Counted from the first letter of the stretch, positions 2,379-61,085 are shown. The stretch: DNA of 64,000 nt from an uncultured Prevotella sp. (GCA_944320195.1 CALUGP010000059.1:2080-66079), one strand, 5' to 3'. Notes: a model not told the origin generated them from the sequence alone. Numbers and translations are program-made.

Positions 2379-2504
2379 AGAATTAAGAATTAAAAATTAA
2401 GAGTTTATTGAATTAAGAATTAAGAGTCAAGAGTTAAGAAAAATACCTTTGAATGCTGTCTGCAAGGCATGTTTTCTTAATTCTTAACTCTTAATTCTTA
2501 ACTT
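2379..2504. repeat. family B word-palindrome, locus B1 (TTAAGAG/TTAAGAA words)
   Basis: Left arm GAATTAAGAATTAAGAGTCAAGAGTTAAGAAAA, loop ..TACCTTTGAATGCTGTCTGCAAGGCATG.., right arm TTTTCTTAATTCTTAACTCTTAATTCTTAAC. Contains the TAA of the 2503 CDS. Confidence 0.85.
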
Positions 2505-3939
2505 ATTCGTCCCACTTGTCCGTGCGGAACGGTATGAGCGGCAGGCCCGCCATGTTGGCGAAGTTGCCAGGGCTGAAGTTCTTGAAGCGGTATCTCACGG
2601 CCACGGGAGCCTTCACCTCGGGGCACGTCAGAGTCACTCCCTTGGCTCCGTCGTATGTGGCCGCGGCCTTGTGGAACACCTTGTCGGCCCCCGCCACTTC
2701 GAATCCTTCTATTCCCTCCATGCGGTTCATGCCGCCGTAGGTGTTGTCCAGCTTCACGTAACACGTGTCATTGCTTATCGTCAGCGACTTGAACGACGGG
2801 CTTTCACACCATATCGACTTCATCCCATACGTCTTGTTGAGCGCCTGCCAGGCCAGTCTCTCGCCCACGGGGCGCTTCTGCGCCGGGTGAATCTGGTTCA
2901 GTTCCCAGGGATATACGCAGTCGTTTGTGCTCACGAAGCCGCTGTTGGGTATTATCCTCGACGCCCTCAGCTGCTGCTCGCGGAGCTTCGCCGACCATGT
3001 GCCGTCGGCGTTTCCGCTCTTGTAAGGCGCTATCTCGACTATGTAGAAGGGAATGTCGCCCAGTCCGAATGCCTGTCTCCACTGCTTGGCCAGCAGCGCA
3101 ACGCGGTCAGAATACTGGTTGCCCGGGTCGCCCACGTTCGAGCATCCCTGGTAGTAGAGGATGCCTTTCACGGTGCAGCGCAGTATCGGGTTGAACGTGC
3201 CGTTGGCCCACAGCATCGGCCTGTGGAAGTCCCACTTGAACTTCTTTACCATCTCAGCCGAGTCAAGCGGCTCGCTCGTGTACTTCTCAAGGTTCTCCCT
3301 CGTCAGCCAGCTCTCCACCCTTGAGCCGCCCTTGTTGGCCATTATCAGGCCTACGGGCACTCCGGTGGCGCGCGTTATGGTCTTTGCGAAGAAGTATCCG
3401 GCGGCGCTCGCGTCACCCACCGTTGCCGGGCAGCACTGTTTCCACTCGCAATCGGCGTCGTCGAGCGGCGTCATGCTCATCACGCCCGGTATCTTCACGA
3501 AGTGTATCAGCGAGTCGGCCCTGGCCCCGGCCACCACGTCGTTGTATCCGTCAACGGGGCAGTTGTCAAAGCCCTTTATGGGCATCTCCATGTTGCTCTG
3601 CCCGGCGCATACCCACACTTCGCCGGCAAGCACGTTCCTTACGGTCACCGCCCCGTCCCCGTCGCCGAAGCTCATGGAGAGCCTGCGGCCGTCGGCCTTG
3701 GGCGATTTCACGGTGAGTTGCCACTTCCCTTGGGCATCGGCCTTGGCCTTGTAGCCGTCGTCGCTCCACGAAACGGCCACGTTGACCGTAGCGCCGGGCG
3801 CAGCCGTGCCCCACAGGCGCACGTCGGAGGCTTGTTGTATTACCATGTTGTCGCCTATTATGTGCGGCAGCCTGACCTTGGCCTGCGCGCCTGCCAGCGA
3901 GGCGGCGAGTGCCGAAAGCATTAAAATTCGTTTATACAT
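2503..3939 (-). CDS. sialate O-acetylesterase family protein (SGNH/DUF303 type)
   Basis: Signal peptide; GEVWVCAGQSNMEMP catalytic block and overall layout of 9-O-acetylesterases. Confidence 0.85.
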   Translation of the reverse strand: MYKRILMLSALAASLAGAQAKVRLPHIIGDNMVIQQASDVRLWGTAAPGATVNVAVSWSDDGYKAKADAQGKWQLTVKSPKADGRRLSMSFGDGDGAVTVRNVLAGEVWVCAGQSNMEMPIKGFDNCPVDGYNDVVAGARADSLIHFVKIPGVMSMTPLDDADCEWKQCCPATVGDASAAGYFFAKTITRATGVPVGLIMANKGGSRVESWLTRENLEKYTSEPLDSAEMVKKFKWDFHRPMLWANGTFNPILRCTVKGILYYQGCSNVGDPGNQYSDRVALLAKQWRQAFGLGDIPFYIVEIAPYKSGNADGTWSAKLREQQLRASRIIPNSGFVSTNDCVYPWELNQIHPAQKRPVGERLAWQALNKTYGMKSIWCESPSFKSLTISNDTCYVKLDNTYGGMNRMEGIEGFEVAGADKVFHKAAATYDGAKGVTLTCPEVKAPVAVRYRFKNFSPGNFANMAGLPLIPFRTDKWDE

Positions 3940-4003
3940 AAAGTCTTAGATTTATAGATTGTTATAATAATCAAATGTCCTGCAATATTACGGAAAAATT
4001 GTC

Positions 4004-4011
4004 TATATTTG
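4004..4011 (+). promoter_or_regulatory. Bacteroidetes -7 box (TAnnTTTG)
   Basis: TATATTTG upstream of the esterase gene (ATG 4093). Confidence 0.45.
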
Positions 4012-4092
4012 CAAAATAAACATTTAATAAATCACAATAAGACAGGCTTTTGCCCGCTATTGAGACAAAACCGTGCAATTACTGAAACAAAA

Positions 4093-4917
4093 ATGAAAGC
4101 GAGAAAGACCATTTTGGCGGCCGTGCTTGCAGCCTTGTGCATGCCCGTGTGCGCCCAGCAGAAGTTTGAGATGAACCTGTGGCCGCAGGGAGCTCCCAAC
4201 TCCAATGGCGACGCGGCCGACTCGGCTAAGGTGTGGGTGTACCTGCCCAAGAAGGAGGCGGCCACGGGGCGCGCCGTCGTCATATGCCCCGGAGGAGGCT
4301 ATTCGCACCTGGCCATGAGCCATGAGGGGCACGACTGGGCGCCGTTCTTCAACAACATGGGCATAGCCGCCGTGGTGTTGAAGTACCGCATGCCGCACGG
4401 CAACCGCGAAGTGCCCGTCAGCGACGCGGAGGAAGCCCTGAGGCTGGTGCGCCGCAACGCGCAGTCGTGGGGCGTTGACGCTCAGGACGTAGGCATAATG
4501 GGGTCCTCGGCGGGCGGCCACTTGGCGTCGACCATAGCCACGCAGGCCACCGGCGACGCCGCGCCTGACTTCCAGATACTCTTCTATCCGGTGATAACGA
4601 TGATGCCAGACATCACCCACAAGGGCTCGCACGACAACTTCCTGGGCCCCGAGGCTAAGAAGAAAGACGAGCACAAGTACAGCAACGACCTGCAGGTGAG
4701 CCGCGTCACGCCGCGCGCCTACATCGCACTGAGCGACGACGACCACGTCGTCCTGCCGGCCAACGGCGTGAACTACTACATCGAGCTGTACCGCCACGAC
4801 GTGCCGGCCACGCTCCACGTCTACCCGTCGGGCGGCCACGGCTGGGGCAACCGCGACTCCTTCATGTTCCACAACGAGATGCAGCTCGACCTGAAGGCAT
4901 GGCTCCGCAGCTTCTGA
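4093..4917 (+). CDS. alpha/beta hydrolase, acetyl/feruloyl esterase-like (Aes/BD-FAE type)
   Basis: Signal peptide MKARKTILAAVLAALCMPVCAQQ at ATG 4093; oxyanion CPGGGY and nucleophile elbow GSSAGGHLA. The longer TTG-4009 version is rejected. Confidence 0.8.
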   Translation: MKARKTILAAVLAALCMPVCAQQKFEMNLWPQGAPNSNGDAADSAKVWVYLPKKEAATGRAVVICPGGGYSHLAMSHEGHDWAPFFNNMGIAAVVLKYRMPHGNREVPVSDAEEALRLVRRNAQSWGVDAQDVGIMGSSAGGHLASTIATQATGDAAPDFQILFYPVITMMPDITHKGSHDNFLGPEAKKKDEHKYSNDLQVSRVTPRAYIALSDDDHVVLPANGVNYYIELYRHDVPATLHVYPSGGHGWGNRDSFMFHNEMQLDLKAWLRSF

Positions 4918-4918
4918 T

Positions 4919-4990
4919 GGTAATTAAGAGTTAAGAATTAAGAATTAAGAAAGCGTGCGCTTCCTGGTTCTTGACTCTTTTTTTTTGCCG
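4919..4990 (+). repeat. family B-derived element, locus B2, terminator-like
   Basis: TAATTAAGAGTTAAGAATTAAGAATTAAGAAAGCG..GGTTCTTGACTCTT followed by T9; immediately after the esterase stop. Confidence 0.7.
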
Positions 4991-6068: not shown

Positions 6069-6168
6069 GCCCGATGAGCCTGATAGGCCAAATAAGTCCT
6101 ATGCGCAGATGGCGTAATTGGCAAGGCATACCAAGCTCCATCCCTTCGGGAGGGCTGGGGTGGGTGTC
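6065..6168 (+). repeat. family C (9-bp-period words) plus family D module
   Basis: ATAAGCCCGATGAGCCTGATAGGCCAAATAAGTCC ... CCAAGCTCCATCCCTTCGGGAGGGCTGGGGTGGGTGTC. Confidence 0.8.
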
Positions 6169-6169
6169 T

Positions 6170-6280
6170 CATTTGCCGTCTTTTAGCTCGCCAAAGGCCG
6201 TCTTTTACAGCCCGAAAGGCCGTCTTTTGCAATGCGAAAGACGGCCTTTCGCAAACCCCCTGACAGTGAGCCGTTTAGCA
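6170..6280. repeat. family A array, locus A2 (with flanking GACAGTGAGCCGTTTAGC module)
   Basis: Three AAAGGCCGTCTTT units and one GAAAGACGGCCTTT unit. Confidence 0.8.
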
Positions 6281-9229: not shown

Positions 9230-9270
9230 CAGGCCCGCCACGGCTTGTCCGGCCTGCGGCGGCACACCAT

Positions 9271-9363
9271 GTTGCAAAAGGCGGCAAACGGCGTTGCGAA
9301 AGACCGTTTTTCGTCTTGTAAAAGGCCGCCTTTCGCAGGCCAAAATACGGCCTTTTGCAACGC
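9271..9363. repeat. family A array, locus A3
   Basis: GCAAAAGGCGGCAAACGG..GAAAGACCGTTTTT..AAAAGGCCGCCTTTCGCAGGCCAAAATACGGCCTTTTGCAA between aroK and speA. Confidence 0.75.
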
Positions 9364-9463
9364 TGGCGGCACAGCTCGGCCAAGCGCTTGATGTACAGAC
9401 GCTTACGCCGGGGCCATATAAACGAAGGAATAAAACAAGTAAACATAATACAACCACACCTAA

Positions 9464-11356: not shown

Positions 11357-11367
11357 ACATAAGCAAA

Positions 11368-11548
11368 CCTGACACCCACGCCAACCCTCACGAAGGGAGG
11401 AAGCTTAGCAAGCCTTGCCGGTTCCAGCAACGGCTCATTGGCCTTATTTGGCTCATTAGGCCCATTAGGCTAATAAGACTAATAAGGCCAATAAGCCTTA
11501 TTGGTAGTCAAGCTCCCTCCCTTTGGGATGGTTGGGGTGGGTGTCGGG
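11368..11548. repeat. composite D(inverted)-C-D element
   Basis: CCTGACACCCACGCCAACCCTCACGAAGGGAGGAAGCTTAGC (11368-11409), a seven-unit 9-bp tandem array (11432-11505), GTCAAGCTCCCTCCCTTTGGGATGGTTGGGGTGGGTGTCGGG (11507-11548). The two D modules are inverted relative to each other. Confidence 0.8.
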
Positions 11549-11572
11549 TTTGAATGATATAAATTATTTGTC

Positions 11573-12346: not shown

Positions 12347-12349
12347 GGC

Positions 12350-12464
12350 ATTGCTGTTGACGGCCTTTTGGAAGGCAAAAGGCCGTCAACAGCACGCCAA
12401 AAGGCCGTCTTTTGCAGACCAAAAGACGGCCTTTTGCAAACCCTCTGGCCGTCAGCCACTTAGC
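12350..12464. repeat. family A array, locus A4 (with CCGTCAGCCACTTAGC module)
   Basis: TTGACGGCCTTTTGGAAGGCAAAAGGCCGTCAA hairpin and AAAAGGCCGTCTTTTGCAGACCAAAAGACGGCCTTTT hairpin, directly after the argB stop. Confidence 0.85.
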
Positions 12465-12480
12465 GGCAGGCCACCAGCAG

Positions 12481-12537
12481 CTTATAAGGCTCATTGGCCC
12501 CATTGGCCTAATTGGCTCGATAGGCCAAATAAGCCGC
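12481..12537. repeat. family C minisatellite
   Basis: CTTATAAGGCTCATTGGCCCCATTGGCCTAATTGGCTCGATAGGCCAAATAAGCCGCC. Confidence 0.75.
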
Positions 12538-12624
12538 CAATCTTTAAAAACCGTTAAATAGCGGAATAATCACAAGATTGCTGTAACTTTCACCCCCGTA
12601 AATCGTCATTCAATTAGAGAGCAG

Positions 12625-13859: not shown

Positions 13860-14342
13860 TCAACGGCCGCATTTGCGGCCCTTGTAGTATGTGTCGAAGG
13901 CGTCCTTGGCGTAGCCGTCTTCAAGCACCTGGAACGACATCGCGCTTGCGCCTGCCATCTTCTTGCCTTTGTAATACACTGTGAAATCGTCCATGGCATA
14001 GCCGTGTCCGAGCGTCTTGAACGACATCGCCGTGGCATCCCCGACCTTCTTTCCCTTGTAATAGACGTCGAAGTCGTCCTTGGCGTAGCCGTCGCCGAGC
14101 ACCTTGAACGTCATCGCGCTGGCTCCTTCAATCTTCTTTCCGCCGTATAACACGTCGAAGTCGGTCACGACGTATTTCTTCCTTCCGCGCCGTTTCTTCT
14201 TACTGTGGTGGCTGTTTTCATGCTTGCGTAGGGTCGTTGCGCGCTCGTTTTGCGCCATGCAGTCTTGCGTGAAGGCTCCGGCCGTTGGCGCGGATAGCGC
14301 GAAGGCCAGCGCGGCGGCAAGGATAATGGTTGTTGTTCTCAT
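13860..14342 (-). CDS. DKNYY-repeat secreted protein
   Basis: Signal peptide, basic stretch HSKKKRRGRKK, then four repeats of about 27 aa of type DDFDVYYKGKK(I/V/M)xGAxAMSF(K/Q)xLGxGYAxD. Confidence 0.7.
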   Translation of the reverse strand: MRTTTIILAAALAFALSAPTAGAFTQDCMAQNERATTLRKHENSHHSKKKRRGRKKYVVTDFDVLYGGKKIEGASAMTFKVLGDGYAKDDFDVYYKGKKVGDATAMSFKTLGHGYAMDDFTVYYKGKKMAGASAMSFQVLEDGYAKDAFDTYYKGRKCGR

Positions 14343-15334: not shown

Positions 15335-15440
15335 CTTGATGGTGTTTGAAAAACTCTGCAAAAGTAAGCATAATATTCCTATTGCGGCCTGCATGGCGGC
15401 TGATATTTGCAAAAACTTTGGCCGCATGCGTAACTGCCTG

Positions 15441-15538
15441 GCGTTGAGCGCATTGCAAAAGGCCGTCTTTCGCAGTGCAAAAGACGGCCTTTCGGCGTGC
15501 GTTTGACGGCCTTTTGCAAGGCGAAAGGCCGTCAATCG
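15441..15538. repeat. family A array, locus A5
   Basis: AAAGGCCGTCTTTcgcagtgcaAAAGACGGCCTTT and TTGACGGCCTTTTgcaaggcGAAAGGCCGTCAA hairpins downstream of the NPP gene. Confidence 0.85.
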
Positions 15539-15549
15539 GAAACTGCCCG

Positions 15550-20266: not shown

Positions 20267-20399
20267 AAAAGAATTTTGTGAACAGATGTTACAAATGCTT
20301 TAAAAGTGGGTAAAAAACGTATTTATATGCGCCTTCACGGGCTGTATTCGGGCGGTTGGCAGGGCGCTGCCCGGGCGGCGGACGGCGGCAGGCGCGTAA

Positions 20400-20529
20400 G
20401 TGGCTGACTGTAAGGGGAATGCTAAAAGGCCGTCTTTCGTCGTGCGAAAGACGGCCTTTTACTGTGCAAAAGATGGCCTTTTGGCTTGCGAAAGACGGTC
20501 TTTCGCAGAGCCGTTTGCGGCCTTTTGCT
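20400..20529. repeat. family A array, locus A6
   Basis: AAAAGGCCGTCTTTCGTCGTGCGAAAGACGGCCTTTT hairpin plus two further units. Confidence 0.85.
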
Positions 20530-24614: not shown

Positions 24615-24780
24615 CTTATTTTTTGCCGAACACAACGATGTTTTGGATTAAATCTGCATTAAATTGTCATTTTTTCACCTTGTGGGCGGGCATTGCCGCG
24701 CCCGGCGCGGCATAAAACCGTGTGCGCCGGCGGCGGTTGTTTCCGCAGCGCAGTGCCGCCAGTGGCGGTGCCGCGTGTAA

Positions 24781-24892
24781 CATGTTGATTGCCAGGCTGT
24801 TATGAAACGCCTCGCAAAAGGCCGTCTTTTAGCTTGTGAAAGACGGCCTTTTGGCGTGCGTTTTGCGGCCTTTTGCAGGGCGAAAGGCCATG
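24781..24892. repeat. family A array, locus A7
   Basis: GCAAAAGGCCGTCTTTTAGCTTGTGAAAGACGGCCTTTTGG hairpin plus GCGGCCTTTTGCAGGGCGAAAGGCC. Confidence 0.85.
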
Positions 24893-24908
24893 TGTTGCTA
24901 TTGCGTTG

Positions 24909-25562: not shown

Positions 25563-25566
25563 TTTT

Positions 25567-25660
25567 CAGGAGTTAAAGGAGTTGTTTCCAGAAGTTAAGG
25601 GAGTTAAAGAAGTTGTCGCTCGCTGCGCTCGCCAAGACGTTAAAGACGTATGCTTTGCCG
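25567..25660. repeat. family B half element, locus B3 (GGAGTTAAAG words)
   Basis: AGGAGTTAAAGGAGTTGTTTCCAGAAGTTAAGGGAGTTAAAGAAGTTG; no matching right arm seen; followed by C and D modules. Confidence 0.6.
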
Positions 25661-25672
25661 CCTTGGCGTATC

Positions 25673-25820
25673 TGGCTCATTGGGCCAATCGGGCATATTG
25701 GGCCTGATAAGCCATATAAGCCGAATGAGCCTGATGCGCCCTAAGCTGCCTGCAAGTCATTTGAAGCTCCCTCACCTGGGTCTGGTTGGAGAGGGTGTCT
25801 GGCCGGGTTGGGGTGATTTG
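25673..25820 (+). repeat. family C plus degenerate family D
   Basis: TGGCTCATTGGGCCAATCGGGCATATTGGGCCTGATAAGCCATATAAGCCGAATGAGCCTGATGCGCC ... GAAGCTCCCTCACCTGGG...GGTTGGGGTG. Overlaps the 3' end of the 25772 CDS. Confidence 0.7.
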
Positions 25821-28764: not shown

Positions 28765-28900
28765 ATGCAATTTAACGAGACGAGGAAATGAAATATAATA
28801 AAAATAGTGAAGACCCGCCATGCGGCCGTCTTGGAGTGTCCTGCCGGCATGGTTTGCAAGGCTCGTCCGGCCCGGTGTGGCAGGCTTGTATGGCAGGCCT

Positions 28901-36190: not shown

Positions 36191-36205
36191 AAAACAAAAA
36201 AGACA

Positions 36206-37222: not shown

Positions 37223-37224
37223 CC
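37183..37224 (-). repeat. family D module (encodes the dus C-terminus and stop)
   Basis: CACCCACCCCAGCCCTCCCGAAGGGAGGGAGCTTGATTAGCC. Confidence 0.8.
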
Positions 37225-37301: not shown

Positions 37302-38018
37302 ATGACTACCGACTTTCAATCACGCACGCGCCTGCTTGTAGGCGACGATGCCGCAGGGCGGCTTTCAGACATCAGAGTGATAGTTTTCGGCGTTGGCGGC
37401 GTTGGCAGCTGGTGCGTCGAGGGGCTGGTGCGTTCGGGCGTGAGGCGTGTCACCATCGTTGACCCCGACTGCGTTTGCCCCTCGAACGTCAACCGGCAGC
37501 TCATGGCTACGGCCGAGACCGTAGGCCGTGTGAAGGTGGACGCGCTGAAGGAACACCTGCTTACGATAAACCCCGAGGCCGAGATTGACGCGCGCCACAT
37601 GGCCTTCTGCGCCGGCACGGCAGGCCAGTTTGACCTGAATGGGTATGATTATGTCATCGACGCAATAGACAGCTTGCAGGACAAGATGCTGCTCATACGC
37701 GCTGCGTGCGACTCCCGCGCCACGCTGTTCTCGTCGATGGGAGCCGCCCGCAAGCTTGACCCTACGCGCGTCCGGGTGGCCGAGTTCTGGAAGGTACAGG
37801 GCTGTCCGTTGGCCCGTTCGCTGCGGCAGGGCTTCAAGAAGAGCGGCCTGCTGCCATCGCGCAAGTTCCAGTGCGTGTACAGCGACGAGCTGCTCGACAA
37901 TGCCGGAACGTCTCTGGAGCCTCGCGCCAACGGCTCCATGGTGCACATAACGGCCGTGTTCGGCTTCACGTTGGCCGGACTCGTCATAGGCGACGTGGTG
38001 CATAGACACGATTGTTAA
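37302..38018 (+). CDS. tcdA: tRNA threonylcarbamoyladenosine dehydratase (ThiF/E1-like)
   Basis: VIVFGVGGVGSW nucleotide-binding loop, NVNRQ motif; size fits TcdA/CsdL. Confidence 0.85.
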   Translation: MTTDFQSRTRLLVGDDAAGRLSDIRVIVFGVGGVGSWCVEGLVRSGVRRVTIVDPDCVCPSNVNRQLMATAETVGRVKVDALKEHLLTINPEAEIDARHMAFCAGTAGQFDLNGYDYVIDAIDSLQDKMLLIRAACDSRATLFSSMGAARKLDPTRVRVAEFWKVQGCPLARSLRQGFKKSGLLPSRKFQCVYSDELLDNAGTSLEPRANGSMVHITAVFGFTLAGLVIGDVVHRHDC

Positions 38019-38056
38019 TTCTTAACTCTTAATTCTTAACTTTTAACTCTTAATTC
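38014..38056. repeat. family B single arm, locus B7
   Basis: GTTAATTCTTAACTCTTAATTCTTAACTTTTAACTCTTAATTC, containing the tcdA TAA. Confidence 0.75.
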
Positions 38057-38142
38057 AAAAGGTCGTCTTTCGCACGATGAAAGACGGCCTTTTGCGTTGC
38101 GATTTGCGCCCTTTTGGCGTGTAAAAGGCCGTCTTTTGAAAG
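38056..38142. repeat. family A array, locus A11
   Basis: AAAAGGTCGTCTTTCGCACGATGAAAGACGGCCTTTT hairpin plus further units, between convergent tcdA and the M16 peptidase gene. Confidence 0.85.
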
Positions 38143-38187
38143 CCGTTGTGTAATGTGTTGAAAACCAGGATGTTGTCAATGCGGCAT

Positions 38188-42313: not shown

Positions 42314-42345
42314 AATTTAACTTCCGTTTGCATATTGGCGGTGCT

Positions 42346-42456
42346 GCGAAAGGCCGTCTTTTGCGTTGCGAAAGGCCATGAATCGCGTTGCAAAAGGCCG
42401 TCTTTTGCACGCCAAAAGACTGCCTTTTGCAACGCGTTGAGCATCAGCCAGTTAGG
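42346..42456. repeat. family A array, locus A12 (divergent region)
   Basis: GCGTTGCAAAAGGCCGTCTTTTGCACGCCAAAAGACTGCCTTTTGCAACGC long hairpin plus two units; GCATCAGCCAGTTAGG module. Confidence 0.85.
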
Positions 42457-42529
42457 TTCATAAGGCTCGTCGGGCTTGACAAGTTTAATAGGCCAATGAG
42501 CCGAATGTGCCTGATAAGTCCGATAATGC
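42457..42529. repeat. family C minisatellite
   Basis: TTCATAAGGCTCGTCGGGCTTGACAAGTTTAATAGGCCAATGAGCCGAATGTGCCTGATAAGTCCGATAATGC. Confidence 0.7.
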
Positions 42530-42689
42530 AGGTAAACGGCGGTCCGCGCTGCTGCGGCGACAGGTGAAAAAATGCAAATATGGAGCGTTGCGGGTTTTAC
42601 TTTCGGCGGTTTTCGGGGTCTATATGATAAAGAGCGCGTCGGCAGACGCGGCGTTTCTATAGATGTAAAACCTAAAAATCCATACTGTT

Positions 42690-45292: not shown

Positions 45293-45335
45293 TTGACACC
45301 CACCCCGGCCCTCCCCAAGGGAGGGGGCTTGAATG
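45293..45335 (-). repeat. family D module between the pspC-like gene and argC
   Basis: TTGACACCCACCCCGGCCCTCCCCAAGGGAGGGGGCTTGAATGG. Confidence 0.8.
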
Positions 45336-45379
45336 GCCGTGGCGGGTATTTTTATTTGTTGTTTATTATAATGTGTCAA

Positions 45380-45562: not shown

Positions 45563-45617
45563 GTCATATGTTTCTGATTTTAATGTAACTGATGTGTCGG
45601 GCATGGCCGTCCGCCTG

Positions 45618-45733
45618 TTTTGCGAAAGGCCGTCTTTTGTCTTGTGAAAGGCCGCCTTTCGTGTCCTAAAAGGCGGTCTTTTGCAACCTGAAAGGCGGCT
45701 TTTTACAAAGTGCTTGATTGTCAGCGGTTTAGC
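45618..45733. repeat. family A array, locus A13 (inside the arg gene string)
   Basis: GCGAAAGGCCGTCTTTTGTCTTGTGAAAGGCCGCCTTTCG, AAAAGGCGGTCTTTTGCAACCTGAAAGGCGGCTTTTT; TTGATTGTCAGCGGTTTAGC module. Confidence 0.8.
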
Positions 45734-45736
45734 AGG

Positions 45737-45872
45737 CACATTCGGCTTATATGGCTTATTGGGTCTAATTGGCCTGATAAGCGCGGTGAGCCGAATATGC
45801 CAAGGCTGTGAACCAACCGGCAAAAGCATACCAAGCCCTCTCCCTTCTGGATGGTTGGGGTGGGTGTCGGGG
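45737..45872 (+). repeat. family C plus family D
   Basis: CACATTCGGCTTATATGGCTTATTGGGTCTAATTGGCCTGATAAGCGCGGTGAGCCGAATATGCC ... CCAAGCCCTCTCCCTTCTGGATGGTTGGGGTGGGTGTCGGGG. Confidence 0.8.
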
Positions 45873-47115: not shown

Positions 47116-47250
47116 TGAGGAGTAAAGCAACAAGGATGAATGCGGCGGATAAGCCCAATGAGCCGAATGAGCCTGGTGCGCCCTTGGAAACACTGGCTGC
47201 AAGGCGTTTTTACTTACTCCTTCACTCCTTTCTCCTTCTCTCCTTACCTT
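47116..47250. repeat. family B-like palindrome, locus B8 (GGAGTAAAG words) with a family-C insert (47143-47187)
   Basis: TGAGGAGTAAAGCAA ... TTTTTACTTACTCCTTCACTCCTTTCTCC; loop holds GCGGATAAGCCCAATGAGCCGAATGAGCCTGGTGCGCCC. Confidence 0.65.
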
Positions 47251-47867: not shown

Positions 47868-47960
47868 GTATAAGCCCGATATGCCCAATGAGCCTGATAC
47901 GCCTTGGGTGCTGATGGTAATCAAGCTCCCTCCCTTTGGGAGGGTTGGGGTGGGTGTTAG
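47868..47960 (+). repeat. family C plus family D between argR and the GNAT gene
   Basis: GTATAAGCCCGATATGCCCAATGAGCCTGATACGCC ... TCAAGCTCCCTCCCTTTGGGAGGGTTGGGGTGGGTGTTAGC. Confidence 0.8.
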
Positions 47961-49310: not shown

Positions 49311-49517
49311 AATCTTCTTGTTTTTTGTTAAGTTCCGTTTTGTTGAGTGTTTGCGCCGGGGCGGCGTGCCCCGGCCGTATCGGCTGCAAACATACGTAAA
49401 AAAAACGACAAACGCTTTTCTTTTAATAAATTTCATTGAATATTCACATTTCTTCTTCGTCCGCACGGGTGCTTCGCGCGCCGTCTCCGCGGACGCTTCC
49501 GGGCCTGCTGCGTAACG

Positions 49518-49617
49518 GTCTGGCACTCAGCGCGTTGCAAAAGGCCGTCTTTCAGTCTGCAAAAGACGGCCTTTTGCAACGCGTTTTGCGGCCTTTTGGA
49601 ATGCAAAAGGCCGTGAA
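49518..49617. repeat. family A array, locus A14 (divergent region)
   Basis: Perfect 21-bp stem 49532-49552 / 49562-49582 (GCGTTGCAAAAGGCCGTCTTT ... AAAGACGGCCTTTTGCAACGC) with a 9-nt loop, plus a second short hairpin. Confidence 0.9.
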
Positions 49618-49725
49618 ACGCATTCCGCCCCGTGGCTCGGCGGCAGTCAGGCCGCCGCGGCGGGCAAAGGTTTTACATTTTTAATAAAAAGCGGAAAAAT
49701 ATTTGCACGTATGCGATTTTATTAC

Positions 49726-50362: not shown

Positions 50363-51625
50363 ATGGCAACAAGAAAGAGTGGTGAAGACACCGTGAGCAT
50401 GGTGGACACCTTTAAGGAATTCAAAGACACGAAGAACATCGACCGCACCACGCTGATGAGCGTCCTGGAAGAGAGTTTCCGCAACGTCATCGCCAAGATA
50501 TTCGGCAGCGACGAGAACTTCGACGTCATCGTGAACCCCGACAAGGGCGACTTCGAAATCTACCGCAACCGCATCGTCGTGGCCGACGGCGAGGTGAAAG
50601 ACGAGAACAAGGAAATATCGCTTACCGACGCGCTGAAGATAGAACCCGACTACGAGGTGGGCGAGGAAGTCAGCGAGAAGGTCGATTTCAGTAAGTTCGG
50701 CCGCCGCGCCATACTCAACCTGCGCCAGACACTGGCCTCGAAAATACTCGAGCTTGAGCACGACAGCCTCTACAACAAGTACAAGGATCGCGTGGGCCAG
50801 GTAATCAGCGCCGAGGTCTACCAGGTGTGGAAGCGCGAAGTTCTGCTCGTGGACGACGAGAACAACGAGCTCATCCTGCCGAAGTCAGAGCAGATACCCC
50901 ACGACGTCTACCGCAAGGGCGAGACCGTGCGCGCCGTCATCAAGGAAGTGAACAACGAGAACAACAACCCCAAGATAATCCTCTCGCGCACGAGCAACAT
51001 GTTCCTCGAACGCCTGCTCGAGGCCGAAGTGCCCGAGATCGCAGACGGACTCATCACCATACGCCGCATCGCACGCATGCCCGGCGAGCGCGCCAAGATA
51101 GCCGTCGAGAGCTATGACGACCGCATAGACCCCGTAGGAGCGTGCGTCGGAGTGAAGGGAAGCCGCGTCCACGGCATCGTTCGCGAACTCTGCAACGAGA
51201 ACATCGACGTGGTGAACTACACCGCAAACATAAAGCTCTTCATACAGCGCGCGCTCAGTCCGGCCAAGATATCAAGCATCAACGTCGACGAGGAAAACAA
51301 GAAAGCGGAGGTGTATCTCCGTCCGGAGGAAGTATCCCTCGCCATCGGCCGCGGCGGAATGAACATCAAGCTGGCCAGCATGCTTACCGAATACACCATC
51401 GACGTGTTCCGCGAACTTGACGAGAGCGAAGTCGACGAGGACATCTACCTCGACGAATTCTCAGACGAAATAGACCAGTGGATCATCGACGCCATCAAAG
51501 GCATCGGCCTCGACACCGCCAAGGCCGTGCTCAACGCTCCGCGCGAGATGCTCGTCGAGAAGGCCGACCTCGAGGAAGAGACCGTCGACAACGTGCTGAA
51601 AGTGCTTAGGGCGGAGTTTGAATAA
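50363..51625 (+). CDS. nusA: transcription termination/antitermination factor NusA
   Basis: S1 and two KH domains (ARMPGERAKIAV, VGACVGVKGSRV, AIGRGGMNIKLA). Confidence 0.96.
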   Translation: MATRKSGEDTVSMVDTFKEFKDTKNIDRTTLMSVLEESFRNVIAKIFGSDENFDVIVNPDKGDFEIYRNRIVVADGEVKDENKEISLTDALKIEPDYEVGEEVSEKVDFSKFGRRAILNLRQTLASKILELEHDSLYNKYKDRVGQVISAEVYQVWKREVLLVDDENNELILPKSEQIPHDVYRKGETVRAVIKEVNNENNNPKIILSRTSNMFLERLLEAEVPEIADGLITIRRIARMPGERAKIAVESYDDRIDPVGACVGVKGSRVHGIVRELCNENIDVVNYTANIKLFIQRALSPAKISSINVDEENKKAEVYLRPEEVSLAIGRGGMNIKLASMLTEYTIDVFRELDESEVDEDIYLDEFSDEIDQWIIDAIKGIGLDTAKAVLNAPREMLVEKADLEEETVDNVLKVLRAEFE

Positions 51626-51768
51626 TTCATAATTCATAATTCATAATTCATAATTGGCTGCGCATCAGCAAAAACTGGAATATGTGTTTAGTCAGTTATG
51701 AATTATGGAATTGAATATCGGTCAAGCCAATGGGAGTTATGAATTATGAATTATGAATTGTGAATTGA
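51621..51768. repeat. family B word-palindrome, locus B9 (AATTCATA words) between nusA and infB
   Basis: AATAATTCATAATTCATAATTCATAATTCATAATTGG ... GAGTTATGAATTATGAATTATGAATTGTGAATTG. The nusA TAA lies in the left arm. Confidence 0.85.
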
Positions 51769-54686: not shown

Positions 54687-54974
54687 GCGAAAGGGATTCA
54701 TCCGCAAACCTTTTGGATTAAACATAAGTTCTATTAATGACACCATCCAACCTTAATCCAGGCAGTCGGTAACTGTCATTCCGCGCCTTGACGTGGAATC
54801 CGGAGAACATCCTATACATCAAACAGCATATGCTGTATTTACTGGATTCCGCGTCGGAGCGCGGAATGACAGTTACTGACCACCTGGATTATGGCAGGAT
54901 GTATTTGTAAATGAAATAATGTGTCACATTTAATAGAGCCGTATGTCCATCCGAGAGGTTTGCGGATGAACTGC
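54686..54974 (-). mobile_element. family E MITE-like element, short variant (E3), inverted copy of E2
   Basis: GGGATTCATCCGCAAACCTTTTGGATTAAAC...GGTAACTGTCATTCCGCGCC...GGAATGACAGTTAC...GAGGTTTGCGGATGAACTGC. By eye, roughly nine in ten positions are identical to the reverse complement of E2. Confidence 0.75.
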
Positions 54975-55062
54975 GGAAGGCCGCAAAACGCCGTGCGAAA
55001 GGCCGTCAATCGCAACGTAAAAGGCCGTCTTTCACACGCTGAAAGACGGCCTTTTGCAATTG
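54975..55062. repeat. family A array, locus A15 (abutting E3)
   Basis: GGAAGGCCGCAAAACG, GCGAAAGGCCGTCAATCG, AAAAGGCCGTCTTTCACACGCTGAAAGACGGCCTTTT hairpin. Confidence 0.85.
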
Positions 55063-55078
55063 GCTGTGCCACAGGCTG

Positions 55079-55993
55079 TTACGCGCCTGGCTGCAGATGT
55101 GCCCGCATGGAGGCTATTTTCTCGCTGAGATACCGCCTGAAGCCGTCTCCGCCCAGCACCCGTATGTCGTCGTAAAGGCCGAGCACGAAGCGCCCTATGC
55201 CGGCGTAGCTGCACACATCGAGGCGCAGGCGGTGGCGTCCGCCGCCGTCGGGCACGACGTGGGGCATGGCCTGGGGATACTCCTCGCGCAGTATGTTGTA
55301 AGACAAGGGGCCGAGCGTGATGTCTACGGGCAGCAGCGCCTCGCCGCTGAACATGAACACGTCGGTGAACATCTGGCGGTGCTTGTCCTCGTGCTCCCAC
55401 TCTGTCTCGAGCATCTCCACGCCCTGCATGCGGCTTATCTTGAACGTCTTGTTCATGCCGCTGGACGGCTCGTAGCAGCGCGCCTCGTTGTTGTTGTTCA
55501 TCAGCAGGAACGGTTCAACGAAGCGGTCGCGCACGGTCTGGCTGTGGGGCGAGGCGTAGCCGCGCAGCACTACCTGGCGGCGCAGCTTTATCGCGTCGTA
55601 GAGCACACCGATGCTGCGCACCGCGTGCTCTCGCAGCTGTTCGTCGGCCAGTATGTCGAAGTCGTAGAAATTCTCCAGTTTCCTTTTCAGCCCGGCTATC
55701 AGGGCGTTGCCGTGCTCGGCCTTGTCGAGCATGCGGCGCAGCAGCACCGCCTCTTCCTCGGTGAAGGATATGCGGCTTACCAGGTGGCTGAAGAAGGGCG
55801 ACGAGCGGTCTATCGTGTGGTAGGCGCCGTGCTTCTGCACCTTGAAGCCGCAGTCGCGGAAGAACTCCAGGTAGTAGTAAAGGTTGCGGCGGGATATCCC
55901 CACCTTGTCGCAGAGTTCGTTTACGGTGTATCTGTGGTTCTCGGCGAGCAGCAACAGCAGGTGGAGCTCGCGCTCAAGTTTGTCGTGGCGCAC
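55079..55993 (-). CDS. HTH + WYL-like domain transcriptional regulator (YafY-like)
   Basis: N-terminal HTH YTVNELCDKVGISRRNLYYYLEFF; central VVLRGYASPHSQTVRDRFVEPFLLM... resembles a WYL domain. Confidence 0.65.
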   Translation of the reverse strand: MRHDKLERELHLLLLLAENHRYTVNELCDKVGISRRNLYYYLEFFRDCGFKVQKHGAYHTIDRSSPFFSHLVSRISFTEEEAVLLRRMLDKAEHGNALIAGLKRKLENFYDFDILADEQLREHAVRSIGVLYDAIKLRRQVVLRGYASPHSQTVRDRFVEPFLLMNNNNEARCYEPSSGMNKTFKISRMQGVEMLETEWEHEDKHRQMFTDVFMFSGEALLPVDITLGPLSYNILREEYPQAMPHVVPDGGGRHRLRLDVCSYAGIGRFVLGLYDDIRVLGGDGFRRYLSEKIASMRAHLQPGA

Positions 55994-55997: not shown

Positions 55998-56138
55998 GTT
56001 AAGTTAAGAGTTAAGAATTAAGAGTTAAGAAAAACGCTATTACTAATTAAGAATTAAGAGTTAAGAATTAAGAAAAATACCACATGTGCAAGGTGCAAAG
56101 CATTCTTTCTTAATCCTTAACTCTTAATTCTTAACTCA
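55998..56138. repeat. family B element, locus B10 (duplicated left arm)
   Basis: Two left arms GTTAAGAGTTAAGAATTAAGAGTTAAGAAAAA and AATTAAGAATTAAGAGTTAAGAATTAAGAAAAA, loop ..GTGCAAAGCATTC.., right arm TTTCTTAATCCTTAACTCTTAATTCTTAACTC. Confidence 0.85.
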
Positions 56139-56711
56139 CAAAAGCCTGAAGCTTTTGCGGTGATACGGCGTGGGGCCATACTTTTTTATCGCCTCGCGGT
56201 GGGCGCGTGTGGGGTAGCCCTTGTTCTCGGTCCAGCCGTACTGGGGGAATTCCCCGGCCAGCCTGTCCATGTAGTCGTCGCGGTAAGTCTTGGCGAGGAT
56301 GCTCGCCGCCGCGATCGAGAGATATTTGCCGTCGCCCTTGACTACGGTGGAGTAGGGGATGAAGCGGTATGGCTTGAAGCGGTTGCCGTCAACGATGATG
56401 GCCTCGGGGCGCACCTTCAGCTGGTCAAGTGCGCGGTGCATGGCCAGTATGCTGGCGTTGAGGATGTTTATCTCGTCAATCTCTTCTGGTGTCACCACGC
56501 CCACGGCCCAGGCCAGGGCGTCGCGCTCTATCTCGCGTCGCAGCTCGTAACGCCGCTTGGCCGAGAGCTGTTTTGAGTCGTTGAGGCCGTCGTTTACATA
56601 GTCTTCGGGCAGTATGACCGCCGCGGCGAATACGCTGCCGGCAAGGCATCCGCGCCCCGCCTCGTCGCATCCGGCCTCGATGAGGCCCGGGTTCATGTGG
56701 CTTTTAAGCAT
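56136..56711 (-). CDS. rnhB: ribonuclease HII
   Basis: [14 protein letters not shown] catalytic DEDD start; DSKQLS motif. Confidence 0.93.
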
Positions 56712-56765: not shown

Positions 56766-57098
56766 ATGCATGTTTATTTTGCAGGCAGAAACGAAACTGT
56801 AAAATATACGCATATGGAAAAGCAAATATCATTAGGCGCAAACGAGAATGTGTTTGGAAAGTGTGCTGAGGCTGTGAGAAGGATATGCCGTTGTGCCGGT
56901 ATGCCGCAACGGATGTTACGCAACTACTACTCAAAGGTGCTCGGCGAGAACGTCGGCGAAGCCCGTGCGCGGGCCATGACCGAAGCCCAGGCGGCCTTCT
57001 TCGCCGTGACCCTGCCGGTGGATTATCCCCTGGCGCTCAGGTTTGTGGTGTGCGCGTGGTTCGTGGTGGCGTTGAGGAAGTTAAGAGTTAAGGGTTAA
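56766..57098 (+). CDS. hypothetical protein (weak call)
   Basis: ORF only; possible start also at Met17 (56814). One hydrophobic C-terminal segment; last codons and the TAA lie in a family-B repeat arm. Confidence 0.3.
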   Translation: MHVYFAGRNETVKYTHMEKQISLGANENVFGKCAEAVRRICRCAGMPQRMLRNYYSKVLGENVGEARARAMTEAQAAFFAVTLPVDYPLALRFVVCAWFVVALRKLRVKG

Positions 57099-57201
57099 GA
57101 ATTAAGAGTTAAGAGTTAAGAAAATATGACTTGAAGTACAATATTGCCGACAAAGCATATTTTCTTAACTCTTAATTCTTAACTCTTAACTCTTAATTTT
57201 T
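57076..57201. repeat. family B word-palindrome, locus B11 (downstream of sufS)
   Basis: GAAGTTAAGAGTTAAGGGTTAAGAATTAAGAGTTAAGAGTTAAGAAAA / TTTTCTTAACTCTTAATTCTTAACTCTTAACTCTTAATT. Confidence 0.85.
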
Positions 57202-57202
57202 A

Positions 57203-58430: not shown

Positions 58431-58618
58431 TAGGAGTTAAAGGAATTAAGGAAGTCAAAGGAGTTAAAGACGAATGTTTTATTTCAGGGAGTTAAGGAGT
58501 TATGTAGTTAAGGAGTTAAGACAAATGTTTTGTTTCAGGGAGCTAAGACTACGCTTTATTTAATTTGTCTGCAAAGCATTTGTCTTAACTCCTTAACTAC
58601 ATAACTCCTTAACTACTA
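58431..58618. repeat. family B word-palindrome, locus B12 (GGAGTTAAG words) between sufD and sufS
   Basis: About 38-bp near-perfect inverted repeat GAGTTAAGGAGTTATGTAGTTAAGGAGTTAAGACAAATG (about 58489-58526) / CATTTGTCTTAACTCCTTAACTACATAACTCCTTAACT (about 58577-58614), plus an extra partial left arm. Confidence 0.85.
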
Positions 58619-58627
58619 AAATAAAAA

Positions 58628-59974: not shown

Positions 59975-59988
59975 GTTTTTTATGTTTA

Positions 59989-60167
59989 TATAGAAGTTAA
60001 AGAATTTAGAGAAGTTATAGAAGTTAAAGCCAAATGCTTCCTCGGATGATTGGCGATAAGCCGAACAAGCCTAATCAGACCTATTAGGCAAATAAGATAA
60101 CTCGATATTAAAGCCTGCAAGGCATTTGGCTTTAACTTCTATAACTTCTCTAAATTCTTTAACTTCC
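59989..60167. repeat. family B word-palindrome, locus B13 (AGAAGTTAAAG words) between sufC and sufD, with a family-C insert (60051-60098)
   Basis: About 45-bp arms AGAAGTTAAAGAATTTAGAGAAGTTATAGAAGTTAAAGCCAAATGC / GCATTTGGCTTTAACTTCTATAACTTCTCTAAATTCTTTAACTTC. Same subfamily as B6. Confidence 0.9.
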
Positions 60168-60176
60168 AACAATTCT

Positions 60177-60929
60177 TCATTCTCCCACTTCCTCCTTAAT
60201 CCAGTCGTAGCCGCGTTTTTCGATTTCTTTCGACAGCTCCGGCCCGGCGGTCTTCACAATGCGGCCCTTGTAGAGCACGTGGATTATGTCGGGCTTGATG
60301 ATGTCGAGCAGGCGTTCGTAGTGCGTGATGACAATGCAGCTCGACTCCGGCGTACGCAGCTTGTTGACGCCTTCGGCCACGATGCGCAGCGCGTCAACGT
60401 CAAGACCCGAGTCGGTCTCGTCGAGGATGCTCAGCTTCGGCTCGAGCATCGCCATCTGGAAAATCTCGTTGCGCTTCTTTTCGCCGCCGCTGAAGCCTTC
60501 GTTCACCGAGCGGCTTGACAGTTTGCTGTCAAGCTCGACGATTTTCCTCTTCTCACGCATGAGCTTCAGGAAGTCGGCCGCGTTGAGCGGTTCTTTGCCC
60601 TCATACTTGCGTTTCTCGTTGACGGCGGCACGCATGAAGTTGGTCATCGACACCCCGGGGATTTCCACCGGGTATTGGAACGAGAGGAAAAGTCCCTCGT
60701 GCGCCCTGTCCTCGGGCTTCATGGCGAGCAGGTCTTTGCCGTTGAACGTAACCTCGCCTTCGGTCACCTCGTACAGCGGGTTGCCTACAAGCACCGCGCT
60801 CAGCGTACTCTTTCCCGAGCCGTTGGGCCCCATTATGGCGTGCGTCTCGCCGTCTTTTATTGTAAGGTTGATGCCCTTCAATATCTCCTTGTCGCCGATT
60901 TTGGCGTGTAAGTTCCTTATCTCTAACAT
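60177..60929 (-). CDS. sufC: Fe-S cluster assembly ATPase SufC
   Basis: Walker A GPNGSGKST, ABC signature FSGGEKKRNE, Walker B LSILDETDSGLD; ATG 60929. Confidence 0.95.
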   Translation of the reverse strand: MLEIRNLHAKIGDKEILKGINLTIKDGETHAIMGPNGSGKSTLSAVLVGNPLYEVTEGEVTFNGKDLLAMKPEDRAHEGLFLSFQYPVEIPGVSMTNFMRAAVNEKRKYEGKEPLNAADFLKLMREKRKIVELDSKLSSRSVNEGFSGGEKKRNEIFQMAMLEPKLSILDETDSGLDVDALRIVAEGVNKLRTPESSCIVITHYERLLDIIKPDIIHVLYKGRIVKTAGPELSKEIEKRGYDWIKEEVGE

Positions 60930-60935
60930 TTTATT

Positions 60936-61085
60936 TAATTCATAATTGGCTTTCGCCGAACTTCGTTTCACAATTCATAATACATAATCGGGCTGCGCCT
61001 TGTCAATTCATAACCCATAATGCGTAATCCATAATAATAATGGCGTATGCCCAATTATGAATTGTGAATTATGAATTATGAATTA
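60936..61085. repeat. family B word-palindrome, locus B14 (AATTCATA words) between sufB and sufC
   Basis: TTAATTCATAATTGG...CAATTCATAA...ATTCATAACCCATAA... / CCAATTATGAATTGTGAATTATGAATTATGAATTAA. Same subfamily as B9. Confidence 0.8.

Follow-up and report, generated by a model that had tools for sequence, protein, structure and literature searches.

What are the long palindromes, built from tandem words of 7 to 9 nt, that fill gaps between ordinary genes in a Prevotella genome? The question is raised by a stretch of 64,000 nt from an uncultured Prevotella sp. (GCA_944320195.1 CALUGP010000059.1:2080-66079), here called the window, in which positions 2,379 to 61,085 hold a series of such elements (B1 to B14) grouped by an initial annotation as family B. 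We describe family B as the AT-rich part of a Prevotella superfamily of foldback-type palindromic repeats with 7-9-nt words and a common core. The reading that we favour, tentatively, is a composite one: the elements would be non-autonomous foldback repeats of heptameric simple-sequence repeats, acting as intercistronic RNA hairpins like REP elements. In its DNA layer these are foldback repeats which are remodelled by slippage, arm-to-arm copying and loop inversion, and which are swapped at junctions over species-level time. The RNA-level function is something that we infer.

The window has a GC content of 57% and carries ordinary housekeeping genes (topA, aroK, speA, an arg cluster, lepB, dapB, dprA, dus, rimP-nusA-infB, rnhB and sufBCDS). 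Its SufD shares 96% identity with SufD of 'Candidatus Prevotella stercoripullorum' and 85% with the P. pectinovora protein, and by sequence the host appears to be a high-GC Prevotella close to 'Ca. P. stercoripullorum'. The elements are not assembly artefacts, because the same DNA is present in independent metagenome assemblies of other samples (loci L001, 12.8 kb, and L002, 7.9 kb, both 100% identical), and orthologous copies are found in many assemblies; one of them (L131, from a 1.09-Mb contig) is 99.0% identical to the window across 8.5 kb.

The arm-loop-arm palindromes were recovered where the initial annotation had placed them by three independent scans, namely a repeat search, Tandem Repeats Finder (TRF) and a separate inverted-repeat scan. 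Inverted repeats with arms of at least 25 nt number sixteen in the window and none in each of ten local-composition-preserving shuffles, and TRF reports periods of 7, 8 or 9 with 3-16 copies in every element. Fourteen loci had been said to share one architecture; ten elements are clean word-arm palindromes, with arms of 29-56 nt, arm complementarity of 81-100% and loops of 17-131 nt, while B3 and B8 are degenerate or chimeric and B7 and 4922-4951 are single arrays. The GC content of the arms is 13-30%. RNAfold energies of the palindromes lie 5-16 standard deviations below those of shuffled sequence (z -5 to -16), those of B3 and B8 only 1 to 2. Altogether the family amounts to 1,928 nt, or 3.0% of the window; within the intergenic DNA of the window its share is 19%. 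That the family is multi-copy, with interchangeable word dialects in a single architecture, is borne out. One word needs correction, as the supposed 8-mer AATTCATA is in fact the 7-mer AATTCAT (TRF period 7). What had been called family C, and placed in loops, is an array of the 9-nt word GGCYNATNN and lies in the loops of B3, B8 and B13. The elements are as follows.

2379-2505, minus strand: B1, TTAAGAR palindrome with arms 2413-2442 and 2472-2501 (sense energy -43.2, z -7.9), at the junction from a SASA-esterase gene (2503-3939) to a NUDIX gene (1862-2377); surplus words adjoin the start of the downstream gene.
4922-4986, plus strand: single purine-type TTAAGAR array (4922-4951) directly past a stop codon; a short degenerate partner, TTCTTGACTCTT, and a T-run come next.
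25563-25790, minus strand: B3, degenerate and chimeric (z -1.8; families D4, D6 and D11), in which a central 9-mer array is flanked by GGAGTTAAAG-type words on one side and by the core and a GC-rich 'D-type' arm on the other.
26439-26536, minus strand: B2, TTAAGAR palindrome with arms 26445-26481 and 26496-26532 (z -8.4), occupying the whole 100-nt junction between two signal-peptidase genes.
34745-34941, plus strand: B4/5 (family D7), one 5' purine arm (34747-34777) and three 3' pyrimidine arms, these being a 44-nt unit in 2.8 copies (34818-34941); the clear pair is 34747-34777 and 34909-34939; junction from a thioesterase gene to dprA.
36057-36195, plus strand: B6, palindrome of the GAAGTTAAAG dialect with arms 36058-36103 and 36145-36190 (z -10.7; families D12 and D20); the dprA stop codon (36064-36066) is within the 5' arm; B13 is its sister copy.
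38015-38056, plus strand: B7, single pyrimidine-type array beginning in the stop codon of a ThiF-family gene, in a convergent gap; 'family C' hairpins come after it.
47118-47250, minus strand: B8, degenerate, of the GGAGTAAAG dialect, with core and 9-mer loop (sense-strand z -2.3), within the arg gene cluster from a GNAT gene to argG.
51622-51767, plus strand: B9, AATTCAT palindrome with arms 51624-51653 and 51737-51766 (sense energy -51.5, z -8.7), filling the nusA-infB junction; its first word contains the nusA stop codon.
56002-56137, minus strand: B10, TTAAGAR palindrome with arms 56036-56075 and 56106-56145 (sense z -9.0); one more arm copy stands downstream, at the sense 3' end; the junction is that between rnhB and a gene of 304 amino acids.
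57079-57202, no strand assigned: B11, TTAAGAR palindrome with arms 57082-57133 and 57151-57202 (z -10 to -12), between the convergent sufS and an open reading frame (ORF) of 94 amino acids, whose stop codon (57096-57098) is within an arm.
58432-58627, minus strand: B12, palindrome of the GGAGTTAAG dialect with arms 58477-58532 and 58572-58627 (56 nt, 88%; z -11) and additional arm and core copies (28-nt unit) on the sense 3' side; sufD-sufS junction.
59992-60177, minus strand: B13, GAAGTTAAAG dialect, with a perfect 45-bp stem (100%) of arms 59993-60037 and 60122-60166 (z -15.8) and 9-mer words in the loop; sufC-sufD junction.
60940-61085, minus strand: B14, AATTCAT dialect, with arms 61005-61035 and 61054-61084 (sense z -7.4) and more words at 60944-60990; sufB-sufC junction.

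Read in the sense of the genes, the order of parts is stop codon, 5' word arm, core, loop (which may be a small 9-mer palindrome in its own right), core complement (GCATTT) and 3' arm, often followed by one to three additional unpaired copies of the 3' arm and then by an A-rich stretch. An element starts at or over the upstream stop codon, as had been proposed, and its last word ends 2-21 nt short of the next start codon. The core is (A)AATG[CT][CT]TTG, often continued by CAG(R)C. It is the sole sequence common to the TTAAGAR, GAAGTTAAAG, GGAGTTAAG, GTAGTTAAAG, GCAGACAA, 9-mer-arm and GC-rich GGGAGGG/CACCCAC 'D' dialects. It stands at the top of the stem in 29 of 78 palindromes of Prevotella loci, a sample partly chosen via the core, against about 2 expected, and in nine of the 11 AT-rich elements of the window alone. 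This apical ATG[CT][CT]TTG, rather than the 'stop-codon words' of the initial annotation, is the common feature of the dialects, and related dialects elsewhere (GCAGACAA, GGGAGGG arms, GGAATTT) have few or no stops. The 7- and 8-nt dialects do present stops in all three frames of both strands; the 9-nt dialect lacks one frame in B6 and B8.

In the genome of the window the TTGCAG side of the core is on the 5' side in eight of eight cases. A fixed orientation of the core relative to transcription was nevertheless dropped as a rule, since it is not universal. Among TTAAGAR pairs the purine arm comes first in 16 of 16 from Bacteroidota and the pyrimidine arm in 7 of 7 from a Chloroflexia contig. 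Such arm order is a chirality and not an orientation, because a purine-arm-first palindrome reads alike on both strands; a link between arm order and the use of Shine-Dalgarno sequences was not supported, other phyla being mixed. Although similar to the local extended -7 box (TAnnTTTGCA), the core has AT for TA or a 3-nt spacer and is without a -33 TTTG, and we do not take it for a promoter.

The ATG of the core in B1, B3, B4, B6 and B10-B13 has an A-rich context like that of true Prevotella starts (in B13 60113-60127, minus strand). It opens ORFs of 5-29 codons that start with M-[PLT]-C-[RKQ]-[QL] and end in the stop-rich 3' arm, and the C-R-Q codons of the B11 and B12 ORFs differ at 3 of 9 nt. 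These ORFs are not constant in length or sequence, B2 and B8 lack the ATG, and the signal is inseparable from the constraint on the stem, to which the ORFs are probably incidental.

The gene map was drawn from ORF length and third-position GC content. In it the elements occur in 12 of 39 co-oriented, 2 of 6 convergent and none of 5 divergent gaps, and these gaps are almost entirely filled. The Bacteroidetes -7 box TAnnTTTG precedes the next gene in none of the 12 co-oriented junctions with an element and in 12 of 26 other gaps of at least 90 nt (Fisher p = 0.007), and elements are richer at operon-internal stops (12/27) than at operon-terminal stops (3/24, p = 0.016). Because the promoter box is lacking, the promoter motifs suggest that the elements lie inside transcription units, and the loops of 17-131 nt contain no -33/-7 promoter pair. 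Location between co-oriented genes, as noted initially, is thus supported. The 'essential operons' named with it hold for suf, nusA-infB and arg, the remaining hosts being ordinary neighbouring genes, and no gene-specific association was seen among the window genes examined.

Elements change the C-termini and stop codons of adjacent genes. The stops at 34746, 36064, 38016, 51623 and 57096 do lie inside the first word or the arm. That at 2503, also attributed to an arm, is the gene's own codon, 1 nt outside the arm, and the orthologue has TGA there; the stop at the arm edge at 26532 is a TGA within a degenerate word.

Hairpins behind stop codons could be transcription terminators or attenuators inside gene clusters, the second of which had been among the first suggestions. 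A canonical hairpin with a T-run takes the place of B11 in a related lineage (L123), the array at 4922-4986 ends in a short hairpin with nine T (4978-4986), and B11 has TTTTT on one side. These are the only T-runs after a stem; most elements have no U-tract, and their AU-rich stems of 30-56 bp do not have the short GC-rich layout of intrinsic terminators. The elements moreover split genes that are obligatorily co-expressed (sufBCDS, nusA-infB, ribosomal proteins), and in many cases the gene that follows lacks a promoter; efficient termination there would be lethal or wasteful. We consider this explanation very improbable.

The suf region was compared with that of ten other lineages. Their SufD is 85-97% identical to that of the window and four-fold-site identity is 0.49-0.73; because of the latter values they are different species and not strains. 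At the sufC-sufD junction the two most distant lineages (L125, L126) have 3 nt and one has a single AATTCAT array (45 nt), and in the remaining lineages palindromes of differing words, 92-202 nt long, are found. The sufD-sufS junction is held by a GGAGTTAAG palindrome in the window, a GAAGTTAAAG palindrome in L147/148, a GC-rich D-type palindrome in L150 and a GTAGTTAAAG palindrome in L151 and L122, and in L149 there is nothing in a 15-nt gap. Downstream of sufS stands the L123 terminator already mentioned. From these comparisons the ancestral junctions appear to have been tiny, originally 3-50 nt. Variation by presence and absence, which the initial annotation had anticipated, is therefore found among related lineages, in which an occupant may be present, absent or replaced. 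An additional gene of 234-244 amino acids with no Pfam match lies between sufB and sufC in L122 (8306-9037), L123 (8442-9146) and L147 (2311-3036); the lineage of the window is without it.

Turnover of this kind brings up the possibility that the elements are purely selfish or neutral DNA, MITE-like (miniature inverted-repeat transposable elements), foldback or self-expanding palindromes that persist as harmless, compact, all-frame-stop hairpins with no host role. Each genome has its own multi-copy families with lineage-specific loops, and among related species one junction may be empty or hold any of four unrelated families. Many copies are halves, nested or chimeric, genes are not chosen specifically, arrays are also carried by viral contigs, and an automated 'cMITE' census reports very many 'MITEs' in Bacteroidota and Prevotella phages, undescribed individually (PMC11602168). 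Against this, no target-site duplication was seen between filled (window, L147, L150, L151) and empty or short junctions (L149, L125, L126, L123), a comparison in which the entire gap differs and a TAA/TTAA duplication would be hidden by the words themselves. No transposase or recombinase gene is present in the window or beside the copies examined, and none of 45 window genes scanned has a Y1_Tnp or other transposase domain. A gene-carrying parent element was found neither in the window nor in about 0.4 Mb of related loci nor between distant arm pairs; the distant inverted arrays of L074, considered as a candidate, merely flank ordinary genes. Blastn of B13 against phage and plasmid collections gave no match. 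Selfish DNA would also be expected in the much larger promoter-bearing gaps, which should be safer targets and are avoided, and would not be expected to saturate ribosomal-protein operon junctions, to follow the direction of transcription or to be as conserved as B1 (below). We regard a purely selfish nature as rather unlikely; the initial suggestion of selfish elements that target stop codons retains some plausibility, with the lack of target-site duplications and transposases against it.

The sequences themselves indicate how the palindromes change. Arms of close relatives differ by single words in one arm (9 nt between L147 and L148, 7 nt between L150 and L151), which indicates slippage. 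The two arms of an element mirror each other even at irregular words (B12, B13). Direct comparison of the sister copies B6 and B13, which lie 24 kb from each other, shows two double, compensatory changes between them. In the B1 orthologue of L143 a 26-nt layer that is not made of words, CTGAAAGTCAGCGTTAAGCTGATTAA, is mirrored in both arms; one arm must therefore have been copied onto the other. Because arms are remodelled at the DNA level, their complementarity alone is not evidence for RNA function.

Loops are also inverted. The core and loop of B1 (window 2443-2471) are reverse-complemented in L132 and L143 relative to the window, L131 and L142, and after re-inversion are 28/29 and 29/29 identical to the window. 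A loop of about 30 nt is exactly inverted between L128 (1075-1134) and both L135 (1426-1485) and L144, in loci that are 98% identical overall. The breakpoints are within the arms, which fits template switching, or an exchange between the arms, better than a specific site for a recombinase.

Such flips raise the question of DNA-level devices, either miniature invertible switches or protein-binding sites or cruciforms (for nucleoid, gyrase or recombination proteins, as with BIMEs, the bacterial interspersed mosaic elements) recognised by the core. Inversion is seen at two orthologous loci, once between strains about 2% apart, the core is kept across all arm dialects, the B1 core and loop are conserved in both orientations, and Bacteroidales are rich in invertons. 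Against this, known invertases could not achieve synapsis over loops as short as 17-40 nt, which moreover contain no promoter, the breakpoints fall in homologous arms as they would by template switching or homologous exchange, no recombinase gene is linked in the window, and the transcription-related asymmetries stay unexplained. Devices of this sort seem to us quite unlikely.

Not all copies turn over. The B1 locus is kept in lineages with 63-66% four-fold-site identity in the adjacent gene, and there the 5' arm is identical at 31 of 31 positions and core plus loop at 28/29 and 29/29 (p < 1e-4). Some copies are thus strongly constrained, or homogenised by other copies, and others replaced.

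Several asymmetries follow the direction of transcription. On the sense strand of co-oriented junctions pyrimidine-type words (CTTA) outnumber purine-type words (TAAG) in 15 junctions and the reverse holds in 1, about ten of these junctions being independent loci; the surplus pyrimidine-type words are on the 3' side. As it holds for genes on both strands of one replichore, this is not a replication effect. The sense-strand RNA is the more stable fold in 18 Prevotella elements against 6 (p = 0.02), with 115 G.U pairs on the sense strand and 71 on the other. Where a single TTAAGAR array adjoins a stop codon, the sense strand is mostly the purine one: the ratio is 30:3 for Bacteroidota (p = 1e-6), 19:4 for other phyla and 27:12 for viral contigs. 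Avoidance of Rho as the cause of this purine bias was rejected, as the AATTCAT dialect has its C-containing, G-free strand in sense after stops.

These biases could mean that the arrays function without the hairpin, as platforms for a single-strand RNA-binding protein (S1, cold-shock, RRM) that would tune initiation of downstream translation, or termination and recycling at the upstream stop, the other arm being a regulatory anti-sequence. It would account for the sense bias of single arrays in several phyla, for the unpaired pyrimidine-type words in excess directly upstream of start codons and for phage junctions, where a single array stands between stop and start. Binding of S1, Csp or CsrA was suggested for the TAACTGA repeats found by start codons in Beggiatoaceae, Cyanobacteria and five Bacteroidetes (PMC4679880), and translational effects are proposed for Nostoc heptamers (bioRxiv 10.1101/2022.06.06.494920). 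The words, however, vary widely by locus and lineage (TTAAGAR, AATTCAT, GAAGTTAAAG, GCAGACAA, GGGAGGG), which makes a single sequence-specific reader unlikely, and upstream of start codons both orientations are found (8 vs 12). We think this distinctly unlikely.

In the composite reading that we prefer, the elements would be co-transcribed within operon mRNAs and fold into long AU-rich hairpins. The base of the hairpin would bring the stop codon and the next start codon together, so that an insertion of 100-200 nt leaves a tight junction undisturbed, and the TTAA-containing words would halt ribosomes in every frame; such hairpins would therefore be tolerated or even favoured in tight junctions, including those of ribosomal-protein operons. 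REP hairpins are transcribed and stabilise upstream mRNA, and can disturb translation termination when they are near a stop codon; Correia and ERIC elements are co-transcribed and cleavable by RNase III. From what is known of REP, ERIC, Correia and phage T7, the stems of 30-56 bp should be RNase III substrates and barriers to 3' exonucleases. The hairpins would, like those of REP/BIME, ERIC and T7, block 3' exonucleases, be cut by RNase III, and so segment and stabilise cistrons. The surplus of unpaired pyrimidine words just before start codons suggests that they may form the leader of the downstream cistron. Complementarity of the arms would be kept mainly by the DNA-level process of template switching or arm-to-arm conversion and not by selection alone.

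Several points weigh against the RNA part of this reading. Co-transcription, folding in vivo, cleavage and effects on expression are all steps that we infer. The excess of sense G.U pairs could come from transcription-associated C-to-T deamination instead of selection, and template switching can keep arms complementary without any RNA function. The B1 loop, identical in both orientations, fits a DNA-level or orientation-independent constraint, or homogenisation, better than a requirement for an RNA loop. Core orientation is reversed in L132, L140 and L143 and is 3 vs 2 in the GC-rich D family. Loops at suf junctions are not conserved between species and L149 has no sufD-sufS element, so no single copy is indispensable, and the Chloroflexia hairpins described below show no sense-strand bias.

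The elements had been taken for an isolated new class, but their arms are heptameric simple-sequence repeats of the kind known as short tandemly repeated repetitive sequences (STRR, in cyanobacteria) or long simple-sequence repeats (LSSR), and other groups, among them Chloroflexia, Planctomycetota and Patescibacteria, have hairpins of paired arrays too. A search for exact matches to three TTAAGAR words, made in one genome per species, gave at least 119 genome loci, and at least 91 viral contigs have the pattern as well. Carriers among the matches listed are many Bacteroidales, Cyanobacteria, Ignavibacteria, Saprospiraceae, Chitinophagaceae, Beggiatoaceae, Treponema, Planctomycetota, Verrucomicrobiota, Acidobacteriota, Patescibacteria and a Chloroflexia metagenome-assembled genome (MAG), and cultured carriers include Marseilla massiliensis An824 and Xylanibacter caecicola PCHR, with TTAAGAR palindromes in L078 and L045. 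Palindromes with period-7 word arms are present in 31 of 126 loci. In the Chloroflexia locus L030 (DASVQO010000194.1, 693-6844) a heptamer-array hairpin occupies 9 to 10 of the 12 junctions of the S10/spc operon (L22-S3-L16-L29-S17-L14-L24-L5-S14-S8-L6-L18). These hairpins, with the words AATTCTT, ATTTAGG, GGAATTT, AGTGGTT and ATTTCGA and with related loops, begin 2-4 nt after the stop codon and end just before the Shine-Dalgarno sequence. In a low-GC Bacteroidales MAG (L118) six word hairpins fall within 8 kb and have a conserved loop of their own, TGGCTTACRCAC. Each lineage thus has families that are particular to it, and in these the arm, the core and the loop are copied as one. The IMG/VR contigs L158, L175, L183 and L189 represent the same locus, with TTAAGAA heptamers alternating with GCCCTTATTCATTAGCATT units.

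This recurrence allows a wider view, which we find doubtful: paired heptamer arrays would be an operon 'punctuation' used across phyla, hairpins set exactly between stop and next start, actively maintained and remodelled by slippage, copying between arms and loop flips, read by the expression machinery or by a heptamer-binding factor, and determining the relative output of adjacent cistrons. Flipping of loop and core would then make some Prevotella elements miniature switches. If true, it would give a function to heptameric repeats that have been known since 1990.

As to what has been described before, in many bacterial genomes no long simple-sequence repeats are more over-represented than heptameric ones, and polymerase slippage was proposed as their cause (Mrazek 2007, as cited in PMC4679880). 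GGGAATC/GGGGATT repeats occur in Xanthomonas and Nostoc, with an occasional inverted pair in Xanthomonas, and the authors of that work state that detailed literature on heptameric repeats is lacking (PMC4692102); a 2022 preprint finds the role of heptamers 'not very well worked out' (bioRxiv 10.1101/2022.06.06.494920). In the literature searched by topic and by literal repeat strings, neither palindromic elements of heptamer arrays nor the core nor the junction rule turned out to be described, the matches being general heptamer-repeat papers only. Nor do the elements belong to a known RNA family: the whole window gave no Rfam match at the gathering threshold, and E-value searches returned no bacterial family, only sub-threshold look-alikes among eukaryotic and viral miRNA-precursor hairpins. 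They are not CRISPR either, their repeats being inverted rather than direct, with units of 7-9 nt and no spacers.

Compared with known systems, the elements share with heptameric simple-sequence repeats (PMC4679880, PMC4692102) the phyla, the tandem 7-nt units by start and stop codons in intergenic DNA, and the fast change of copy number and sequence between relatives. They differ in that the arrays are systematically paired as long inverted arms round a loop, with a non-repetitive core, and form dispersed families of arm, core and loop together that fill promoter-less operon junctions. Like REP, BIME and REPIN sequences they are abundant extragenic palindromes between co-transcribed or convergent genes, with variable arms or clusters, but REP are GC-rich, 20-40 nt long, begin with 5' GTAG, have a RAYT transposase and lack tandem words, and family B elements have no conserved terminal tetranucleotide of the GTAG type. 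Bacterial MITEs (Correia/NEMIS, ERIC/IRU, RUP, BOX) are likewise multi-copy, non-coding and 80-230 nt long with terminal inverted repeats, AT-rich relative to the genome, placed at gene ends and able to supply stop codons. Here, in contrast, no target-site duplication, defined termini or related insertion sequence or transposase were found, the inverted repeats are tandem arrays over nearly the whole element, and loops vary between copies. The Foldback (FB) elements of Drosophila and other eukaryotes have long tandem-repeat arms of variable number, a variable loop and concerted evolution of the arms; they are kilobase-sized, some carry genes, and, lacking homology to family B, they are an analogy of architecture only. 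The RNase III hairpins of phage T7 early mRNA and of bacterial operons also lie exactly between cistrons of one transcript, and predicted stems of at least 20 bp would be RNase III substrates; T7 sites are unique conserved sequences with internal loops, whereas family B consists of repeat families. Bacteroidales invertons too have inverted repeats round a segment seen in both orientations across strains, but the segment is 150-300 bp long with a promoter and a dedicated recombinase, and here about 30 nt flip, without a promoter, between arms far longer than the loop.

Already known, then, are the heptameric building blocks and the general kind of extragenic palindromic, MITE-like repeat; apparently new within the literature searched are that arrays are systematically paired into hairpins with a core in common, that these are confined to promoter-less junctions, that their asymmetries follow transcription, and that loops flip and the pattern recurs across phyla. 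Heptamer repeats have been without an established function for more than 30 years, and the Prevotella case offers an unusually ordered handle, with experiments feasible in the cultured carriers. Making up about 3% of the DNA and about one fifth of the intergenic DNA, the elements will mislead inverton and MITE finders, terminator predictors and short-read assembly in a dominant gut genus, and sites with flipped loops will be called 'invertons' by tools based on inverted repeats.

Other repeats of the window accompany family B. GC-rich 'D' palindromes, with arms of the form GACACCCACCCC..CCCTCCC-GAA-GGGAGGG, have a ATGCCTTGC core and 9-mer loop arrays in common with it, and hold suf junctions in related species (L149-L151) where B elements sit. 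The 9-nt GGCYNATNN arrays are inner layers, themselves palindromic, of both B and D elements, and also serve as arms of palindromes of their own in L132 (5520-5765), L143 (5518-5583) and L149 (1222-1314).

1705-1870 and 11364-11552: 'D' palindromes.
6120-6168, 34238-34286, 37183-37224, 45297-45338, 45820-45868 and 47910-47958: half copies of 'D'.
11423-11504, 12470-12541, 25656-25751, 42464-42536, 45735-45803, 47132-47184 and 60051-60096: GGCYNATNN arrays.
816-954, 29072-29251 and 54744-54901: a long GC-rich palindrome in three copies, its arms 50-71 nt long (...ATCCAGGCTGTCGGTAACTGTCATTCCGCGCC...GGAATCC), all in long gaps, with sub-threshold miRNA-like Rfam matches only.
553-639, 6163-6276, 9269-9382, 12348-12461, 15420-15548, 20373-20528, 24779-24907, 28893-29021, 32419-32554, 38053-38161, 42341-42454, 45617-45730, 49491-49630, 54968-55081 and 62706-62795: examples of a repeat with a 22-nt unit, AAAGGCCGTCTTTTGCA.

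The last of these is very abundant, occurring in 17 of 50 gaps, and its direct and inverted copies form GGCCGTCTTT/AAAGACGGCC hairpins, which stand in long promoter-bearing or convergent gaps and almost never share a gap with a B element. It includes GCCGTCT, also part of the Neisseria DNA-uptake sequence, and dprA is in the window; the repeat could be a terminator or REP-like family or an uptake signal. Finally, an in-frame tandem repeat of 87 nt (3.3 copies, 73% matches) lies at 13878-14163 within a DKNYY-family gene (13860-14342, minus strand).

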